Numbered from the stretch's first letter, positions 4,221 through 46,459 are shown. The stretch: DNA of 64,000 nucleotides from an uncultured Brachyspira sp. (GCF_944388875.1 NZ_CALXKQ010000011.1:13073-77072); one strand, 5' to 3'. Program-made: numbers and translations. Notes: generated by a model from the sequence alone, not told the origin.

Positions 4221-5252
4221 TCAAACAACCATTTCATCTTCACCAGCACGGGCAACAACAATATCGCCTTGTTCTTCAAGCTTACGTATGATATTAACGA
4301 TTTTTTGCTGAGCTTCCTCAACGTCTTTAAGACGAACAGGTCCCATAAAGTCCATATCCTCTTTAAGTAATGCAGCAGCACGTTTGGACATGTTTCTATA
4401 AACTTTATCCTGAGCATCCGTATCAACACTCTTAAGTGCTTTTGCTAAGTCGCTTGAGTCAACCTCACGAAGTACTTTCTGTATAGCTCTGTCATCAAGT
4501 AAAACGATATCTTCAAATACAAACATACGTTTCTTAATCTCTTCTGCAAGTTCAGGATCATCCTCTTCCAAGCTCTCAATAATACTTTTTTCTGTGGATC
4601 TATCAACACTATTAATGATTTCTACTATAGAGTCAATACCTCCAGCAGAAGTAAAGTCTTCACTGGCAAGAGTAGAAAGTTTTCTTTCAAGTACCCTTTC
4701 AACCTCTCTTAGTACCTCAGGCGATGTTCTGTCCATTATAGCAATACGTTTAGCTACATCAGGCTGTATTTCTGTAGGCAAAGCTCCTAATATACTTGCT
4801 GCCTTTTGTGCCTCTAAATAAGCCAAAATAAGTGCTATAGTTTGAGGGTGTTCACCTTGTATGAAGTTAAGTAAGTGTGCTGGGTCTGTACGGCGTATAA
4901 AATCAAAAGGTCTAACCTGTAATGAAGATGTTAATCTGTTGATTATATCGCTTGCTTTCTGACTTCCTACAGATCTTTCAAGCAAATCTCTTGCATAATC
5001 TATACCGCCTTGAGTTATAAAATCCTGAGCTATCATCATCTCTTGGAATTCTCTGAATACTGCATCCTTATCGGCTGCTTCTATATTTTCAAGTCTAGCA
5101 ATGTCAAATGTTATTTGCTCTATTTCTTCCTCACGTAAGTGTTTGAATATTTCACTGGATGTTTCCATACCAAGTGATACTAGAAATATAGCAACTTTTT
5201 GACGTCCGCTTAAAACACGTTGCTTTTTATCTTTTTCTTTCTCTGCAGGCAT
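4221..5252 (-). CDS. fliG: Flagellar motor switch protein FliG
   Basis: LSGRQKVAIFL, EHPQTIALIL, MFVFEDI, MGPVRLKDVEEAQQKIV. Confidence 0.97.
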   Translation of the reverse strand: MPAEKEKDKKQRVLSGRQKVAIFLVSLGMETSSEIFKHLREEEIEQITFDIARLENIEAADKDAVFREFQEMMIAQDFITQGGIDYARDLLERSVGSQKASDIINRLTSSLQVRPFDFIRRTDPAHLLNFIQGEHPQTIALILAYLEAQKAASILGALPTEIQPDVAKRIAIMDRTSPEVLREVERVLERKLSTLASEDFTSAGGIDSIVEIINSVDRSTEKSIIESLEEDDPELAEEIKKRMFVFEDIVLLDDRAIQKVLREVDSSDLAKALKSVDTDAQDKVYRNMSKRAAALLKEDMDFMGPVRLKDVEEAQQKIVNIIRKLEEQGDIVVARAGEDEMVV

Positions 5253-5296: not shown

Positions 5297-7000
5297 TTAA
5301 CTCTTATCATCAGCCATCCAAGTACGCAACAACTGTGCTACATCTTCAGGTCTTTCATGGCTTACACGTATAACTTCGTCCATAAGTTTCTTACGTGCCG
5401 CATCTTCCAAACTCATCTCGCTTATAGGCTCTTCATTAGCATTCATCATAGCCTGTCTGCGCATTTCCATTTGTTTGCGTTCAAGCTCTTCTTCTCTAAG
5501 TCTGCGTCTTCTAGCAAGTTCTTTCTGTATAGCTCTTATTGCCAATGCCAATACAAACAATATTAGTAAAGAAATCATTGTTATTATCAAAGTTTTCTTT
5601 ATAAATCTATCACGCATAAGTTTAGCATCTTCAGCATTGAATCTGTCCCAATGGTCAAACTGAATATGTGTTACACTTACTTGGTCGCCTCTTTTCAAAT
5701 CATAGCCAATAGCAGCCTGTACCAAAGATGTAACGTTATTTATTTCTTCTGTTGTTACTGGGTGATATTCTCTTACATAACTGTTACCGTTAGTAATTAC
5801 AGGGTCCCCATTAACATCATAAACTTTTGTCCATCTTCCATCTAAAGCAACAGCAGCTGATATTTTTCCTATTTGATAACTTCCTTTTTTGATAGCTTCA
5901 TATCTTTTGCTTAATTCATAATTGTCCTGAGCATCAGTTTTTGTATATGTCTGCCATCTGTCGCTTTTATCTTTATATCCAGGAGGTACATTCTCTTCTG
6001 CTCCTGCAGCACCTTGAGGTATAAATTGCTGTCCTTTCCAGTCTTCTGTTACTGTACGGCTTGATACTTGAACCTTATTAGTAAATTGACTGTCATCATA
6101 AGGTGTTGTAGGATCATCTTCTTTTAATATTATTGGAAGAACTAAATTATTTGTTATACTAACATCATCCCAAATAAGTTCTAATGCTATTGTTGTTTCT
6201 ACTCTGTTAGTATATATTCTTCCTAATGTCTGTCTTATTTTATTTTCTATCTTTTTTCTTTCTCTGTCAACTATTTTTAACTCTTCCTGAGCAACTTTTA
6301 ATTTCAAGTTTGCAGCTTCATCTGTAAAGTCAGTTAATACATAACCAGTACTGTCTGTTATTGTAACAAACTCTGGTTTTAATTTATCAACACCCATAGC
6401 TATTAATTGCTGTAATCCTCTAACTGTTTTAGGATCTCTTAAAACATCTTCTTTGAAAGGCTGAGCCCTAATAACTACTGAAGCGGTTACTGGAGAATCT
6501 ATATCTGTTAAGTATTCCTTCTTTGGGAAGGCCAAATCAACTGTAGCTTCCTGAACAAAATCTAATTTAGTTAAAAGCTGAGTAATAGCTTTAGTTAATG
6601 ATCTTCTTTTGTTTATATCAAGTTCAACATCTGTTATACCAATACGAGGAGCATCAAATAATTCCCATCCGTCTACTCCTGTAGGCATTCTTCCCTCTTT
6701 TACTAATTCTAATTCTGCTCTAGCTTTATCATTTAAATTATTAAGAGTTATGAAGCCATTTCTGTACTGGTATTTTATGTTATTAGCATCCAAAACTGCT
6801 ATAACATTTCTGGCATCCTCTTGAGTTAAAGCATTCTGAAATAGTAATGTTCCTGTTCTTCTTGATGTCAGCATTATTGTAGCTATTATTGCACCAAGCC
6901 CTATAACTAAAACACCAATTAAAATTGCTTTTTGTAATGTTGTTGTTTTAGCAAAAATATTTTTTATTTGACTTGTCAATTTATTTATAAAGTCCTGCAT
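5297..7000 (-). CDS. fliF: Flagellar MS-ring protein FliF
   Basis: Two TM segments flanking a periplasmic ring domain (GWELFD, ASVV, SAAVALDG); C-terminal PEDVAQLLRTWM helix; upstream of fliG. Confidence 0.93.
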   Translation of the reverse strand: MQDFINKLTSQIKNIFAKTTTLQKAILIGVLVIGLGAIIATIMLTSRRTGTLLFQNALTQEDARNVIAVLDANNIKYQYRNGFITLNNLNDKARAELELVKEGRMPTGVDGWELFDAPRIGITDVELDINKRRSLTKAITQLLTKLDFVQEATVDLAFPKKEYLTDIDSPVTASVVIRAQPFKEDVLRDPKTVRGLQQLIAMGVDKLKPEFVTITDSTGYVLTDFTDEAANLKLKVAQEELKIVDRERKKIENKIRQTLGRIYTNRVETTIALELIWDDVSITNNLVLPIILKEDDPTTPYDDSQFTNKVQVSSRTVTEDWKGQQFIPQGAAGAEENVPPGYKDKSDRWQTYTKTDAQDNYELSKRYEAIKKGSYQIGKISAAVALDGRWTKVYDVNGDPVITNGNSYVREYHPVTTEEINNVTSLVQAAIGYDLKRGDQVSVTHIQFDHWDRFNAEDAKLMRDRFIKKTLIITMISLLILFVLALAIRAIQKELARRRRLREEELERKQMEMRRQAMMNANEEPISEMSLEDAARKKLMDEVIRVSHERPEDVAQLLRTWMADDKS

Positions 7001-40037: not shown

Positions 40038-42026
40038 TTATTCGTCATCCTCTCTCTTATTCTCATTCTTTGGCTCGCCTCTGTATTTTTCTGTTTGAAT
40101 CATTCCGCCGTCTTCAAAAAATGTTATAGCCTTATAGCTTTGTCTTATAGCAAACTCAGCACTTCCTATTGTAAGCTGTACACCAGGAAGCATCTCTTTA
40201 CCAGCACTTACAGTAGATTCAACTTTTTCTATTTCCATTTCCTGTAACAAAGCTTCTCTATTTAATACAACCTCTTCCCTTCTGCTATTAGCCTGTTCTA
40301 ACTGTTCTTTATAACTTTGCAGCTGATCTTTTTTCTCATCATCCAATTTCTTAAGTTTAGCAGCCTGCTCTATAGATTTTATATTTCTTTCTGTTTCTTC
40401 AATAGATATATCCAACTCTTCTTTCTCTTTATCCAATTCATCAACAGCACGTCTTTTTGCAGGGCTTATTCCTGTTTCTATTATAGTTTTAGCACCAGCC
40501 TGAGAACCTAATACTTTACCATTAACTTCTACTAAAGCTCTGAGTCTTCCGCCGCTTGCAGATGCTCTCTTACCTATAAGTATTATTCTATTATCCGCAT
40601 CAATATTAGAGTTCAATATAGCCTCAGTAACAACAACATTATTTCCAGCCTGAACATTGGAGAACTGTATAAACTTAGCAATAACATCCCCTCCAGCTTT
40701 TACAAAACTATTTTCATTGCCTTGAATACCAAGTTTAACCATAATGTCACCCTTAGCCTCTAAGTCGCATTTACCTACAGTTCCATGAACATCTATATTT
40801 CCTTCCGCTTTAACAGAGTAATTATCGCTTACACTTCCTTTAACAACAACACTTCCTATGAAATTAATGTTTCCAGTTTCAGGACCTACATCACCAGCCA
40901 CTTCAAATATAGGTTCAACACTAAGCAGCTTCCCTTTAAGAACAACTTGTCCGCTTATAGAAGCAATTATATATTCATTGTCATCAGACAGCTCCACGTT
41001 ATTGCCTAATATCTCTTTAATATCTATATCTTTTCCAGGTTTAGTTTCTATTTTCAATCCAAGTACAGTTCTTCCTGTTTCTCCGTCTGTAGCAGGAAGT
41101 TTTCTAGCTAACTTTTGTCCCTGCTCAACATTTTCAACTATACTTAAATCCTTATAGTCAATACTTTGATCCTCTCCTATATATTTAGGTATAACTTTTT
41201 TATTTACATTAACTAAATATTCTATCTTAGCATTCTGACCATTAACAGGAGGACGTCCTTCAGCAGCAAGTATAGGCACATTGAAAGTTCCTTCATCCAA
41301 GCATCTTGAAACATTCTCTTCTTGGAAGCCGAAAGTAATACTGCTGTTTTCTAATAATTCTTTTACATCCTGCAAGTCCATTTCCCTTCCGCCTCTAGTA
41401 GGCTTTGTAACTGTAACATAAGCACGCATCTTATCATCACTGAGAGTGTAGCTAATCTTAGCATTATTAGGAGATTTAGATATATCCCATTCAGCAATTT
41501 TTTCATACTGCCCTGTTTGTTCATGAAGCATTTTTTTTGCCAAATGAGAATCATATTCTTTTATGCCAGCATCTATTAACTTTCTTTCTAAATCCATCAT
41601 ATCTTCAATTCTTTTACCTTCAGCAACAGGAGGCATAACTTTTAAGAATACTCCATCCCTCTTAACTCTTAAAATTATTTCTGTATCTTTGTTGAATACT
41701 ACTTTCTCCTGAGCATTTTCTCCCGTATTTCCAGTGCTATAATCAACACCGCCTCCAAGAGAAATATTTGATTTTTCATATTTAATATGAGTATATCTTA
41801 CAAGAAAAGGCTTTGCTCCTATATTAAAAAATCCTTTGCTTCCCTCTTCAAGTACTTTATAACTTAATTCATATATAGGACATTGAAATACAGCAGCAGC
41901 TTCCTGCATGCCTCTTTCCAAAGAATTAACATATAAATCAACAGAACGAGTATTTTTATTATTATAAATTTCTTTATAAAAATCACTTTCTAATATTTTT
42001 CTTTTTAATTCATTCATAAAAATCAC
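40038..42026 (-). CDS. fapA: FapA/DUF342 family flagellar-associated protein with N-terminal Jag_N-like domain
   Basis: PPVNGQNA, GDVGPETGNINFIGSV.VKGSV, beta-helix-like repeats, C-terminal coiled coil; N-terminal YKVLEEGSKGFFNIGAKP. Confidence 0.85.
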   Translation of the reverse strand: MIFMNELKRKILESDFYKEIYNNKNTRSVDLYVNSLERGMQEAAAVFQCPIYELSYKVLEEGSKGFFNIGAKPFLVRYTHIKYEKSNISLGGGVDYSTGNTGENAQEKVVFNKDTEIILRVKRDGVFLKVMPPVAEGKRIEDMMDLERKLIDAGIKEYDSHLAKKMLHEQTGQYEKIAEWDISKSPNNAKISYTLSDDKMRAYVTVTKPTRGGREMDLQDVKELLENSSITFGFQEENVSRCLDEGTFNVPILAAEGRPPVNGQNAKIEYLVNVNKKVIPKYIGEDQSIDYKDLSIVENVEQGQKLARKLPATDGETGRTVLGLKIETKPGKDIDIKEILGNNVELSDDNEYIIASISGQVVLKGKLLSVEPIFEVAGDVGPETGNINFIGSVVVKGSVSDNYSVKAEGNIDVHGTVGKCDLEAKGDIMVKLGIQGNENSFVKAGGDVIAKFIQFSNVQAGNNVVVTEAILNSNIDADNRIILIGKRASASGGRLRALVEVNGKVLGSQAGAKTIIETGISPAKRRAVDELDKEKEELDISIEETERNIKSIEQAAKLKKLDDEKKDQLQSYKEQLEQANSRREEVVLNREALLQEMEIEKVESTVSAGKEMLPGVQLTIGSAEFAIRQSYKAITFFEDGGMIQTEKYRGEPKNENKREDDE

Positions 42027-42029
42027 CTA

Positions 42030-42848
42030 TTATAATAATTGTTTTTTTATCTCTGAAAGAGAACATCTTAATTCCTGTATGGCCTTGCCATGCAGCTGCG
42101 ATATTCTGCTTTCTGATACATCCAAAACTCTTCCTATCTCTTTTAATGTAAGATCATCATAATAATATAATATCAAAACCTGTTTTTCTTTTTCAGGCAA
42201 TCTCTTTAAAGCATCAACTATCTTATTTTTAACATCTTCTCTCTCAGCTAAATATTCAGGGTTAGTCTTATCATTAGATTTTAAAGTATCTATAACAGAT
42301 ATCTCATCAGAGTCATCGCCTACATACCAAACATCGCTCAAAGAAGTAGGAGAAGCCTCTATATATCTTTTCATAGTTTCATTATATTTACTCATTGTAA
42401 TTCCTAACATATCAGCTATCTCCTGCGGTTTAATATTTCTGCTAAGTCTTGCTTCCAGTATCTCCCTAGCCTTTTCTATCTCCTTAACATCCTTACGTAT
42501 AGACCTAGGCAGATAATCAAGTTTTCTAAGTTCATCATATATAGCACCTCTAATCCTAGTAACTGCATAAGTTTTGAACTTAATATCTCTATTGGGATTA
42601 TATTTATCAATAGCATCCATTAAACCAAAAGTACCAAAACCTACTAAATCTTCAAATTCAATATGTTTATGAGAACCCATTTTTACAGATACTTTACCAG
42701 CAACATATTTCACCAATTGAGCATATTTAATAATTAATGCCTCCCTTATAAAAGGGGATTGTGTCTTTTTGAACTCAAGCCAATGCTCCTGTTCATTCTC
42801 ATTAGTAATATTTGGTATTTTGCCTTTGTCTTTCTTATTCATTTTCAT
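42030..42848 (-). CDS. fliA: RNA polymerase sigma28 factor FliA/WhiG
   Basis: EDLVGFGTFGLMDAIDKY, KFKTYAVTRIRGAIYDELR, LTLKEIGRVLDVSESRISQLH. Confidence 0.96.
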   Translation of the reverse strand: MKMNKKDKGKIPNITNENEQEHWLEFKKTQSPFIREALIIKYAQLVKYVAGKVSVKMGSHKHIEFEDLVGFGTFGLMDAIDKYNPNRDIKFKTYAVTRIRGAIYDELRKLDYLPRSIRKDVKEIEKAREILEARLSRNIKPQEIADMLGITMSKYNETMKRYIEASPTSLSDVWYVGDDSDEISVIDTLKSNDKTNPEYLAEREDVKNKIVDALKRLPEKEKQVLILYYYDDLTLKEIGRVLDVSESRISQLHGKAIQELRCSLSEIKKQLL

Positions 42849-42870: not shown

Positions 42871-43491
42871 TTACTTATTCTCTTTTTCATCTTTTGCTAT
42901 CATAGTTCTAACAGCTTTAGCCACTTTTTCAGGATCCTCATGAACTTCTTTAATTATCTCGCTCTCTTTTACCTTTTTATCTGGAAACATGCTGCTTGAA
43001 GAACTATAACTTGATGGTGCAGTATTAGACGATGCACTATTTGAACTTCCAAAAACTATACTTCCTATATCATCTCCTGAACTAGAATAATCCATTTTCT
43101 GATTTTTATCAACATTAGGAACAACATCAGCATCATTATTATTAGAAGAAGCATCATTAGGTAAAATTGTATTGGTAGGATGTTCATATCCTGCCATAGT
43201 GTTGTCATCTATAGCACCATAATCTATATCCAAATTAGAAGATGATGAAGCCGATGCTGATTCATCTATCACATCTCCTAAATATTTTTTCAATACAGTA
43301 CCAAGTAAAAATAATATTCCTGCCGTTATAACAGCTGATATAATAGCCTTAACTATAGAAATATCTATCCTATTTTTATATAGAACAGAAAGTATAAGCG
43401 TTATTACAAATGATAAACCTATTATTAATCCAGCCAATTTACCAAAATTAGAAGAAAAATATTGTTTAACTTTTTCAACTACATTATTCAT
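42871..43491 (-). CDS. FlgV-like two-TM flagellar protein with FliF-like C-terminal tail
   Basis: Two N-terminal TM helices, acidic/Ser-rich linker, position between flhG and fliA as for flgV in other bacteria; homology not searched. Confidence 0.6.
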   Translation of the reverse strand: MNNVVEKVKQYFSSNFGKLAGLIIGLSFVITLILSVLYKNRIDISIVKAIISAVITAGILFLLGTVLKKYLGDVIDESASASSSSNLDIDYGAIDDNTMAGYEHPTNTILPNDASSNNNDADVVPNVDKNQKMDYSSSGDDIGSIVFGSSNSASSNTAPSSYSSSSSMFPDKKVKESEIIKEVHEDPEKVAKAVRTMIAKDEKENK

Positions 43492-43527: not shown

Positions 43528-44391
43528 TTATTTTTTACTAACAAATGATAATAAAGATTCAACAAAACCGCCGAAACCTTTTATATCTCTGCCGTCATCA
43601 TACTCCATATCTATTATCTTTTTAGCTATATTATATATAGATATAGAAGCATGACATTTATTATCATACTGATAAAAAGGAAGCTGCTGTGAAACCGCAT
43701 AAGGAATGGTTTTATCTTCCAAAATATGCCCTAAATATTTAACATCCATATCTAAATATTTTTTACTAGTCATTATTATTTTATCTCCAACCTCTTTCCC
43801 TTCAGAAGCCTTAGTAACTCTATTAACCAATATTTTTATATCAGCATTTGCATTTTCTGGTGCTATAGACTTTATAACCCCATAAGCATCCAATATAGCA
43901 GTAAGTTCTGGAGTTGTTACTACAATACTTTCATCTGAAGAAAGCAAAAAGTATAAAACAGTATCTGATATGCCAGCCCCTGTATCAACTATAACTATAT
44001 CAGCATCATTTAAAGAATCCATACTATTAACTAATTTACTTAAAGCCCTTCCTGATAAATTAGCTAAAGAAGAAAATCCTGAAGCACCTGCAATATACCT
44101 TATTCCATAATTAGTTTCAAGTATAACCTCATGCAGTTTTTTTACTCCCTTTATCACATGATATAAATTATATTCAGGCATATTTCCAAGTATTACATTA
44201 ACATTACCAAGTCCAAGATCTGCATCTATCAAAAGCACATTCTGTCCCAACTGCTGCAATGCTATTGATAAATTAATTGCAATATTCGTTTTACCAACAC
44301 CGCCTTTGCCGCTGGCTATACTAATAATACGCTGAGGACGTTTATCTTTAACCCCCATCATCTTTCTTAATTCATCTGCTTGATCTTTCAT
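43528..44391 (-). CDS. flhG: FlhG/FleN MinD-like ATPase
   Basis: DQADELR N-terminus, SGKGGVGKTN, DADLGLGNV, DTGAGI. Confidence 0.94.
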   Translation of the reverse strand: MKDQADELRKMMGVKDKRPQRIISIASGKGGVGKTNIAINLSIALQQLGQNVLLIDADLGLGNVNVILGNMPEYNLYHVIKGVKKLHEVILETNYGIRYIAGASGFSSLANLSGRALSKLVNSMDSLNDADIVIVDTGAGISDTVLYFLLSSDESIVVTTPELTAILDAYGVIKSIAPENANADIKILVNRVTKASEGKEVGDKIIMTSKKYLDMDVKYLGHILEDKTIPYAVSQQLPFYQYDNKCHASISIYNIAKKIIDMEYDDGRDIKGFGGFVESLLSFVSKK

Positions 44392-44428: not shown

Positions 44429-46459
44429 TTATTTTGTATCGCCAAATAACCCTTCCATTATTTTATACCCATATTTTTTAGCAGTAGATATGTCTTTAGG
44501 AACACCCTGACCATGAGTAATATAAGTAATAGGCAGCTTTTTCTTAATTATAGCACATATCGATGAAGCTAAATAATCTGTTTCATCAACTTTAGTCAAT
44601 ATAACACCCTTATAATTTGTAGGTTTAAATGCATTCAATATTTTAACAGCATCCTTATATTTAGCAGTAGAACTCATAACAAGCTGAATATCCATATCAA
44701 ATCTTCCAACTGTAGTGAAATATTTAGACATTGCAACTATATCTTCAGCACCTTTAGGAGAACGTCCCATAGTATCTATAAATAAAAGAGAAGAATTATC
44801 CATTTTTCTAATTTCCGCTCTCAAAGCCTCTGGAGTACTCGCACTGGTAAAAGGAACTTTCATTATGCTTGCATATCTTTGAAGCTGATCTACAGCAGCA
44901 ATTCTATAATTATCTATAGTAACAAATGAAACTTTTTTACCCGATTTCATGTGCTGTGCTGCTATTTTAGGTATGGTTGTAGTTTTACCAACGCCTGTAG
45001 GTCCTACAAATACTATTATTTTCTTTTTAACTCCTATATCTATGCCGTTTGAAAGCATCAATCTTTCAGAAAAATATTTTTCAACCTCTTCTATAATTAC
45101 ATCCTTAGATTGAAAAAATCTGGCATTGCTTGAAGTAAGCAAATATTCTCTTAAATCTAATAAAATTTCTTCAGGAAACTCTCTATTTCTTAAATAGTTA
45201 AAGCTCTCTTCCATTCCGTCAGCAACAGTAACTTCAGAATCATTTTCTGTGTTATTTTCAAAATAATTTCTTATTTTATTTCTGCTACTGATTTTATTAT
45301 CTCTAGTTTCTCTAGCAAGATTATTTTCTTCTCTAAACTCTTTTATCTCTTCTATAGAATCTCTTATTTCGCTCTCTTCATCTCTAAATAAATCATTATA
45401 TTCTGTTTTTTGATTATATGTATTATCATTAATATTATTGGAGTTATAGTTCTTATTTGCATTCAGGTTTGGAATACTATTTTCTAAATATTCTTTAACT
45501 ATATCTTTTATTTGTTCCTGAACTAATCTTTTAACATTTTCATCTATAGAATTGTTAATTTGAGAATTATTAACAGTATTATTTGCATAAGAATTCATAT
45601 TATTATGAACATTGCTGTTCATACTGTTCATAAAACTATTATTAGAAAAATTACCATAACTATTACTATTGCTTGAATTATTGGAATTATAAGAAGAATC
45701 TGACAGCATTCTATTTCCCATATTGGCAAATATAGAATTAGCAAATGGAGAATTAGAGTACTGAGAATTATTAAAATGAGGCAATGGAGTAAAATTATCA
45801 TTTCCTCTTTCTATATTATTATAGTTATTTCTATCTGCAATATTATTTCTTTCTGATACATTATTTATATCTATATTATTTTTTCTCTCTAATACATCAG
45901 CACTATTAATATTGAAATCAGTATTATTATTTTCTGTATAAGAAGAATTATTGCCGATATCTGCATTATCATTTTTATTAGAAAACTCATCAGCAAAACC
46001 TAATTCTTCTGCATTTTCTTCTTTATTATTAAAAGCAGGAGTATCCAAAGAAGAAGCAGTGTTTGTATTTACCTTATTAGCATTTCTCTTTTTTAAATCC
46101 TCTTTAAGTCTTCTGCTTATAGATGCTATTCTGTCAGCCATCTCGCTGGCATCAATAGCTTCTGTTCCATGCTTTTTCATTTCTATTCTATCGCTTAAAA
46201 TTTTGCTTCTATGCATATTATCATCATCTTCTATGCTGCTGTCATAAGAACTTTTTTCTTCTGAATTGTTTTTTCTATCGTATATAGAGTTATTAAGCAT
46301 TATTCTAAGCTCATGCTCTGTTTTCATTCCAAGCCCTAAAAATCCGCCGACTTTTATATCTTTAGTAGTTAAAATGACGAAGTTGCCTCCATATTCAACT
46401 CTGGCTTTAGCTAATGCATCCTTTTTATCCTTACCTCTAATAGTGCGTATGTCTACCAT
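44429..46459 (-). CDS. flhF: Flagellar SRP-family GTPase FlhF with very long Asn/Ser-rich linker
   Basis: GPTGVGKTTT, DNYRIAAVDQL, DTMGRS, TKVDET, GQGVPKDI. Confidence 0.94.
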   Translation of the reverse strand: MVDIRTIRGKDKKDALAKARVEYGGNFVILTTKDIKVGGFLGLGMKTEHELRIMLNNSIYDRKNNSEEKSSYDSSIEDDDNMHRSKILSDRIEMKKHGTEAIDASEMADRIASISRRLKEDLKKRNANKVNTNTASSLDTPAFNNKEENAEELGFADEFSNKNDNADIGNNSSYTENNNTDFNINSADVLERKNNIDINNVSERNNIADRNNYNNIERGNDNFTPLPHFNNSQYSNSPFANSIFANMGNRMLSDSSYNSNNSSNSNSYGNFSNNSFMNSMNSNVHNNMNSYANNTVNNSQINNSIDENVKRLVQEQIKDIVKEYLENSIPNLNANKNYNSNNINDNTYNQKTEYNDLFRDEESEIRDSIEEIKEFREENNLARETRDNKISSRNKIRNYFENNTENDSEVTVADGMEESFNYLRNREFPEEILLDLREYLLTSSNARFFQSKDVIIEEVEKYFSERLMLSNGIDIGVKKKIIVFVGPTGVGKTTTIPKIAAQHMKSGKKVSFVTIDNYRIAAVDQLQRYASIMKVPFTSASTPEALRAEIRKMDNSSLLFIDTMGRSPKGAEDIVAMSKYFTTVGRFDMDIQLVMSSTAKYKDAVKILNAFKPTNYKGVILTKVDETDYLASSICAIIKKKLPITYITHGQGVPKDISTAKKYGYKIMEGLFGDTK

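Follow-up and report, generated by a model that had tools for sequence, protein, structure and literature searches.

It was not until 2023-2024 that FlgV was recognised as a widespread component of the basal body; it influences flagellar assembly and motility, as well as dissemination in mice in the case of Borrelia. The closest described system is BB0268 of Borrelia burgdorferi, a Type-1 protein that has been renamed FlgV and whose gene accompanies flhF/flhG and fliA/fapA (Zamba-Campero et al. 2024, PMC11607428). In Borrelia, cryo-electron tomography (cryo-ET) places FlgV density between the MS and C rings, where it had earlier been taken for FliG2 (PMC11607428), and both deletion and overproduction of the protein reduce filament assembly. 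The binding partner of the FlgV tail was posed as a future question by the describing authors, whose account of BB0268 makes no mention of FliF_C or FliG_N for this tail (PMC11607428). In the literature on FlgV and FliG, no mention was found that the FlgV tail resembles FliF_C or is linked to FliG_N.

FlgV of Helicobacter pylori and Campylobacter jejuni (Type-2; PMC10655999) is, like the Brachyspira protein described below, a small protein with two transmembrane (TM) helices encoded after flhG; its homology to Type-1 FlgV is marginal (PMC11607428). Type-2 FlgV forms a ring at the MS/C-ring junction and interacts with FliF: in H. pylori, cryo-ET shows its cytoplasmic part in the same plane as FliF_C and FliG_N; in C. 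jejuni, FliF and FlgV co-precipitate, and contacts between the TM helices of these two proteins were predicted by AF2 (PMC10655999). The authors of the H. pylori study suggested that FlgV stabilises the MS/C-ring junction (PMC10655999). Basal-body localisation of FlgV is established only for B. burgdorferi and H. pylori, in both cases by cryo-ET.

The second system of relevance is the contact between FliF and FliG. The last approximately 20 residues of FliF carry both contact and coevolution signal with the FliG N-terminal domain (PMC6079021), and FliF_C wraps FliG domain 1 in the Salmonella cryo-EM structure (PMC11087270). A T. maritima FliF tail has been crystallised with FliG_N (5TDY), and the co-folded FliF_C-FliG_N complex of H. 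pylori has been solved (5WUJ, as cited in PMC10655999). In B. burgdorferi the MS ring contains 41 FliF (PMC13710759) and the C ring is 46-fold (PMC6663468).

The flgV locus

The window, by which we mean the whole 64,000-nucleotide stretch analysed here, comes from an uncultured Brachyspira sp. (GCF_944388875.1 NZ_CALXKQ010000011.1:13073-77072). It contains the gene order flhF-flhG-flgV-fliA-fapA. The five genes lie on the minus strand, and 22-37 nt separate flhF, flhG, flgV and fliA from one another:

44429..46459, minus strand: gene resembling flhF, for an SRP-type GTPase that carries a long insert rich in Asn and Ser (read from its GPTGVGKTTT...DTMGR motifs, no family scan)
43528..44391, minus strand: flhG, MinD/ParA-type ATPase, with a 36-nt gap upstream of flgV (ParA, CbiA and AAA_31 matches)
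42871..43491, minus strand: flgV, 206 aa, Type-1 FlgV of the BB0268 family (ORF call, profile homology)
42030..42848, minus strand: fliA (sigma-28), 22 nt downstream of flgV (Sigma70 r2, r3 and r4 matches)
40038..42026, minus strand: fapA-like gene with a Jag_N domain (PF03961, PF20250, PF14804)

Scans of the 206-aa FlgV against Pfam and NCBIfam gave no family match. The protein can be divided as follows:

43378..43437, minus strand: TM helix 1, residues 19-38, LAGLIIGLSFVITLILSVLY (hydrophobic stretch; AF2 helix 15-37, pLDDT ~95)
43291..43362, minus strand: TM helix 2, residues 44-67; its Lys48 occupies the conserved intramembrane basic position (hydrophobic stretch; AF2 helix 42-82)
42967..43275, minus strand: disordered cytoplasmic linker, Ser/Asn/Asp-rich, residues 73-175 (Brachyspira alignment; AF2 pLDDT ~50)
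43054..43071, minus strand: DIGSIV, a short conserved island in the linker, residues 141-146 (Brachyspira alignment)
42874..42966, minus strand: C-terminal helix-Pro-helix tail, residues 176-206 (AF2 helices 176-183 and 187-204; near-invariant in Brachyspira)
42889..42936, minus strand: core FliF-like motif, D186-P-E-K-V-A-K-A-V-R-T-M-I-A-K-D201 (family consensus and hhalign)

An AF2 model built with 76 homologues predicts a TM hairpin of helices 15-37 and 42-82 (pLDDT >90), followed by residues 83-175 at a pLDDT of ~50 and without secondary structure, and then by a tail (pLDDT ~90) in which helices 176-183 and 187-204 flank a break at E185-D186-P187. The model agrees with the initial annotation, which had placed the tail behind two TM helices and a long linker; this linker is rich in Ser, Asn and Asp. 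It is also hypervariable within Brachyspira in both length and sequence, with many indels, and within it D141, I142, G143 and I145 of the short island are invariant in 16 Brachyspira sequences. The column of Lys48 in TM2 contains R in 56/76 homologues and K in 16/76, with Arg in other Brachyspira; as judged from this alignment, Lys48 is a conservative replacement at the intramembrane Arg position. Asp43 is invariant in Brachyspira, and its column is mostly Gly in the wider alignment, whose register may differ from the published one.

Because operon position, the two TM helices, the basic residue in TM2, the linker and the conserved tail all agree with those of Type-1 FlgV, the Brachyspira ORF is classified as an ordinary Type-1 FlgV, a known kind of gene. 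The identity given in the initial annotation is upheld by position (flhF-flhG-X-fliA-fapA), architecture and homology alike. Relative to BB0268, which occupies the same place after flhG, the Brachyspira protein has Lys for Arg in TM2 and a longer linker, and its tail (AKAVRTM) is nearer to the spirochaete consensus than is the Borrelia-type tail (AETIKSL).

Distribution of FlgV and of its tail

A total of 185 FlgV homologues were found, of which the top 120 are all from Brachyspira, and an exhaustive profile search extended the family to approximately 70 distant relatives with the same layout of two TM helices, linker and tail. The profile has a match in 145/151 Spirochaetota genomes. One of these matches is an ORF of a Borrelia-type genome, in which the FliF tail is nearly identical to that of B. 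burgdorferi FliF (12DR).

The tail is near-invariant in Brachyspira (E[DE]PEKVAKAVRTM). Among the approximately 70 distant homologues and 29 spirochaete genomes its consensus is eDPe.mAKAIRTml.KDe, followed by a few residues and then the stop codon. FlgV of Paenibacillus, whose gene shares a superoperon with fliF at a distance of approximately 25 kb, keeps [DEQ]-P-E-x-L-[AV]-x-A-h-R-x-h at its C-terminus, and a Defluviitaleaceae ORF ends in ...EELLAKAIRDLLKRDE.

The conservation of the tail among orthologues that the initial annotation had looked to holds for Brachyspira, for spirochaetes and for the approximately 70 distant homologues, but it breaks down in Planctomycetota, Butyribacter and Sulfurimonas-type genomes. 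FlgV-like two-TM proteins of three Planctomycetota genomes and of Butyribacter (Lachnospiraceae) have short acidic ends without the tail helix. Sulfurimonas-type FlgV (GFFxG motif, ~110 aa), which is encoded after flhG, has a short, structured-looking C-terminal part unlike the Brachyspira tail, and by inspection no FliF-like tail. We therefore rejected the idea that the tail is universal in FlgV: since it is missing in several lineages, it cannot represent the core function of the family, and the FliF-like tail is, on the sequences compared, a module of spirochaetes and some Bacillota rather than of FlgV as a whole.

Likeness of the FlgV and FliF tails in the window

The genes for FliF and FliG lie approximately 36 kb from flgV, on the same strand:

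5297..7000, minus strand: fliF, MS-ring protein, 567 aa (TIGR00206, 260 bits; PF01514, PF08345)
5306..5353, minus strand: FliF C-terminal motif R550-P-E-D-V-A-Q-L-L-R-T-W-M-A-D-D565, the FliG_N-binding helix (alignment to the 5TDY and 12DR FliF tails)
4221..5252, minus strand: FliG
4905..5213, minus strand: FliG N-terminal domain, FliG residues 14-116, proposed target (PF14842, 148 bits)

FlgV residues 178-203, EIIKEVHEDPEKVAKAVRTMIAKDEK (nt 42883-42960), form an ungapped alignment with FliF residues 542-567, EVIRVSHERPEDVAQLLRTWMADDKS. This alignment to the last 26 residues of FliF, claimed in the initial annotation, was reproduced with 12/26 identities and a BLOSUM62 score of 61. The initial annotation had given the FliF tail as 5297-5375; its actual extent is nt 5300-5377, with the stop codon at 5297-5299. 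When the FlgV tail was compared with the whole 567-aa FliF, the best ungapped segment was the FliF C-terminus, with a score of 62. None of 1000 shuffled FlgV tails reached this score against the whole FliF (mean 28.6, sd 4.1, max 56), and the maximum for 5000 shuffled tails against the FliF tail was 51; in all, 0 of 6000 shuffles reached the score observed. As had been noted at the outset, the FliF Trp is replaced by Met, W561 standing opposite Met197.

In nucleotide sequence the tails of FlgV and FliF are only ~55% identical, and their synonymous codons differ; a recent copy of one into the other, by duplication or gene conversion between fliF and flgV, was therefore rejected. The match further upstream (EIIKEVHE/EVIRVSHE) was rejected as part of the motif: it is conserved only in part of Brachyspira, and the family-wide match between FlgV and FliF is confined to the last ~15-20 residues, from the Pro onward.

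Comparison of the tail families

Spirochaete FliF proteins end in ...N-A-I-N-l-A-R-E-h-P-E-d-V-A-q-L-I-R-T-W-L-a-E-E, and this C-terminal motif is kept in the FliF sequences of 29 spirochaetes and 66 further bacteria; the T. maritima (5TDY) and B. burgdorferi (12DR) FliF tails align to the same motif. The pattern common to both families, with the FlgV residue given first, is P-E-x-hydrophobic-A-x-(A/L)-(I/L)-R-T-(M/W)-(L/M). The FlgV tail has several features of the FliF_C that co-folds with FliG_N in T. maritima, H. pylori and the Salmonella C-ring cryo-EM structure: a location at the extreme C-terminus, a helix after the Pro, the motif P-E-x-h-A-x-x-h-R-(T)-h-h and an end 15-17 residues past the Pro.

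Positions were compared between 85 FlgV and 29 spirochaete FliF sequences by anchoring both on the Pro (P0). P0 is present in 72% of FlgV and 100% of FliF sequences, A+4 in 98% and 96%, R+8 in 68% and 96%, and T+9 in 84% and 100%, respectively. E+1, a hydrophobic residue at +3, I/V/L at +7, L/M/I at +11 and D/E at +14 are also common to the two families, and the median distance from the Pro to the end is 17 residues in FlgV and 15 in FliF. In contrast to the FliF_C motif P-E-x-V-A-x-L-(I/L)-(R/K)-x-W-(L/I)-x-E-(D/E), FlgV differs at +6, +10 and +13. FlgV has Ala at +6 where FliF has Leu, and at +13 it is basic (Lys/Arg) where FliF is acidic (Glu). Position +10 is Trp in 29/29 spirochaete FliF sequences and near-universally so elsewhere, whereas the 85 FlgV sequences have M (35%), V (22%), L (16%) or I (12%) and never W. 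The lack of Trp (here Met) at +10 appears tolerable and is not disqualifying, because Campylobacterota FliF tails have Leu or Ile in place of Trp at this position and the FliF_C-FliG_N complex of H. pylori has nevertheless been solved.

In a profile-profile comparison by hhalign, 68 FlgV tails matched 25 spirochaete FliF tails in the same register over 20 columns (Prob 85.6, P 5.5e-6), and the result was retained when Brachyspiraceae were left out on both sides (score 24.9, P 5.4e-6). A reversed-profile control scored 7.6, and 300 free column shuffles gave a mean of 7.1 and a maximum of 15.3; with 300 shuffles that preserved the hydrophobic/polar pattern, these values were 8.6 and 19.9, versus 25.5 observed. 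Permutation of the profile score in a fixed register gave p < 5e-6 when free, 2.8e-4 with the pattern preserved, and 1.8e-3 with the pattern preserved and the D-P-E helix cap left out. When a full-length FliF profile (594 columns) was used, the FlgV tail matched best at columns 574-593 (27.5), with the next match at 11.3, and decoy families from the same genomes scored lower against the tail (FliG 17.7, FlhG 12.5, FliA 11.6). The match was also found with independent sets: 11 Bacillota FliF tails plus that of T. maritima gave the same register (P 6e-6), and 66 FliF tails from many phyla, gathered through a FliG DNA motif, gave Prob 90.9 and P 1.1e-6 over 24 columns. In this genome, of 19,399 six-frame ORFs, the one ranked next below FliF by an HMM of FliF tails built without Brachyspiraceae was FlgV (7.8 bits, E 2.5), and a strict shared pattern, defined post hoc, occurred only in FlgV and FliF in 1.9 million six-frame residues.

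The likeness reported in the initial annotation accordingly exceeds that of shuffles matched for composition and for amphipathicity, and it recurs with independent FliF sets. At the level of the families it is very probably real, whether by common descent or by convergence, and it does not by itself imply a shared function. That it is a coincidence of two conserved C-terminal helices, functionally meaningless, appears very unlikely. The pair was chosen by eye from a 64-kb window, the single-sequence E-value of the genome-wide HMM search is 2.5, and all of the signal lies in ~15 residues; it is, moreover, partly generic as read from these alignments, being made up in part of the D-P-E helix cap, Ala and amphipathic periodicity. 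However, the hhalign P values of 1e-6 to 6e-6 for a pre-specified pair still correspond to ~0.01 after allowing for ~1,800 protein pairs in the window, the permutation controls agree with a real likeness, both motifs lie 15-17 residues from the C-terminus, and FlgV and FliF are neighbours in the motor.

Reach of the signal and other candidate partners

An HMM search of the FlgV tail against FliF, which the initial annotation had offered as a check, did not bear the likeness out: 10 FlgV tails gave no match to TIGR00206 at E<=10, and the whole FlgV protein gave none to the same model. FliF was not ranked high when an HMM of FlgV tails was run against the ORFs of this genome, FlgV was only 172nd with an HMM of Bacillota/Thermotoga FliF tails, and a FlgV-tail profile found no FliF among PDB chains. 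The link between FlgV and FliF is thus, in these comparisons, visible only by profile-profile alignment, and HMM searches between the families miss it. In a scan of 596 Gb of DNA for DPE..AKA[IV]RT, FlgV matches were confined to Spirochaetota; the same word also occurs in Burkholderiales NarL-type response regulators, in transketolase-like C-termini and in other proteins.

These results bear on a rather unlikely alternative of some weight, namely that the tail is a short linear motif for another flagellar partner and that its likeness to FliF_C is convergence on a capped amphipathic helix. Candidates would be FapA, sigma-28 or its regulators, FlhG/FlhF, or the export apparatus (FlhA_C, FliH/FliI). 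Such a motif would fit the presence of the same 11-residue word in unrelated proteins, the failure of HMM-level searches to join FlgV and FliF, and the systematic differences between the two on the hydrophobic face, at +6 and +10. It would also fit the co-conservation of flgV with fliA and fapA (PMC11607428) and the phenotype in Borrelia, which lies in late, export-dependent assembly and not in basal-body structure. Against another partner, of ~1,600 columns from real flagellar families only those of the FliF tail gave this degree of profile similarity; three independent FliF sets yielded it again, and it survives both the amphipathic-pattern shuffles and removal of the helix cap. In addition, FlgV adjoins FliG_N in situ, and Borrelia, which is without sigma-28, keeps a recognisable, more diverged tail.

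Putative docking of the FlgV tail on FliG_N

On present evidence, the reading that asks least is that the FlgV tail binds FliG_N, whether as the membrane anchor or as the decoy suggested in the initial annotation; we put forward this putative interaction tentatively, with somewhat less than even confidence. What is new is this specific partner hypothesis for a conserved FlgV peptide, the gene itself being of a known kind. Docking on FliG_N would fit the published cryo-ET that places FlgV at the MS/C-ring junction. In the proposed arrangement, the TM hairpin of FlgV would lie beside the transmembrane helices of FliF, the flexible linker of ~100 residues would let the tail reach the ring of FliG_N domains, and the tail would dock in, or adjacent to, the groove that receives the tail helix of FliF. 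FlgV might then tether FliG to the membrane as an additional, weaker link, whether at FliG subunits that no FliF holds or transiently during assembly. A weaker tether of this kind would account for late-assembly defects on both a shortage and an excess of FlgV.

Several observations speak against docking. The signal common to the tails is short and in part generic, HMM searches do not join the two families, the DPE..AKA[IV]RT word recurs in other proteins, and FlgV of several lineages is without the tail. FliG_N co-folds with two FliF helices, and most FlgV proteins conserve only one: the first helix of FliF_C, of ~20 residues, also packs on FliG_N, whereas Brachyspira FlgV has only an 8-residue helix there, and the columns upstream of the Pro are not conserved across FlgV. 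The hydrophobic faces differ at +6 and +10, and the charge at +13 is opposite. Finally, the FliG_N sites are normally filled 1:1 by FliF.

The expected saturation of FliG_N by FliF_C would be accommodated if the tail were instead an extra helix that packs on FliF_C or on the outer face of FliG_N and so stabilises the MS/C-ring junction. The co-precipitation of C. jejuni FlgV with FliF and the junction stabilisation suggested by the H. pylori authors are in keeping with such a helix, and the smaller side chains at +6 and +10 would suit a shallower site. We nonetheless regard this arrangement as improbable: the simpler explanation for a tail that resembles a ligand is that it uses the ligand's own site, and no structural density has been assigned to a helix of this kind. 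No FlgV chain was found in the PDB, where the new Borrelia motor entries (12DR and others) contain FliF and no FlgV.

A further version, which we likewise consider improbable, is that FlgV supplies surrogate FliF tails, completing and membrane-tethering unpaired FliG_N domains in motors whose enlarged rotors contain more FliG than FliF (a 46-fold C ring versus 41 FliF in B. burgdorferi). Surrogate tails would resolve the stoichiometric mismatch between the MS and C rings and set the C-ring size possible for each MS ring. The FlgV density in averaged maps resembles a full ring, an observation that runs counter to surrogate tails.

If docking on FliG_N is correct, FlgV would be a new element at the MS-ring/C-ring joint, which transmits all motor torque and which is also the site of a symmetry mismatch between the rings. 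If the tail copies the FliF helix, the question of its partner becomes directly testable with one peptide and one domain. Should the idea prove wrong, what remains is a routine orthologue of FlgV.

FliG copy number

The initial annotation had also suggested that the tail could be the dedicated membrane partner of a second FliG paralog, taken here as FliG1-type. Many spirochaetes do have 2-3 FliG_C-carrying ORFs, which would leave room for such a role. However, this genome, which is 99.99% complete, encodes one FliG, the other weak matches being MgtE-like or noise. A single FliG was found in 6/6 Brachyspiraceae genomes (this one and five others), and the FlgV tail is kept and nearly invariant there. 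Because Brachyspiraceae have a single FliG, the paralog idea is inapplicable to them and a second FliG was rejected as the partner of the tail in this family; as a general explanation it seems to us extremely unlikely. Other spirochaetes have 1-3 FliG, counted as FliG_C-carrying ORFs, and the FlgV tail is kept in all of them.

Recurrence of the tail motif and variation among FliF tails

The DPE..AKA[IV]RT word in the C-terminal tail of FlgV is a generic capped helix: Burkholderiales response regulators of the NarL type also contain it, in their helix 5, and it lies at the extreme C-terminus of transketolase-like enzymes from one Planctomycetaceae and one Binatia genome. The loci concerned are L091, L093, L095 and approximately 25 others, together with L100 and L151. 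Such recurrence calls for caution in claims resting on motifs. Campylobacterota-type FliF tails (PEEIARLLQALLTEE and PEEVASLFQALIKDE; loci L390, L416, and L427) lack the Trp that is near-universal elsewhere and have additional residues C-terminal to the motif.

FlgV linker and downstream ORFs

The Brachyspira FlgV alignment contains a second conserved island, which is invariant across the genus and lies within the linker, surrounded by hypervariable sequence:

43054-43071, - strand, D-I-G-[DS]-I-[VI]

A wider alignment shows further islands (LPE directly following TM2, VDI..DE, and D.LPDI); these linker islands may be additional short linear motifs. Directly downstream of the tail-less Planctomycetota flgV-like genes are small, very acidic ORFs (L446 and L448) with the C-terminal end H-[IV]-D-[VL]-E-A.

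Large FliG_C ORFs

Several spirochaete genomes encode, in addition to canonical FliG, large ORFs (783-1098 aa) with a FliG_C domain, possibly FliG-like proteins of a fused or non-canonical type (genome:contig:positions):

G110:C20:18083-18406
G110:C11:226595-226930
G069:C2:22895-23188
G046:C176:2183-2476
G058:C305:7012-7308

Neighbouring flagellar genes

The architectures of two genes near flgV were noted:

44429-46459, - strand, FlhF-like GTPase
40038-42026, - strand, FapA-like protein with N-terminal Jag_N (PF14804)

The GTPase reaches 676 aa because an Asn/Ser-rich, low-complexity insert of approximately 300 residues separates its N-terminal region from the NG domain. In the FapA-like protein, Jag_N is followed by FapA_N and then the FapA beta-solenoid.
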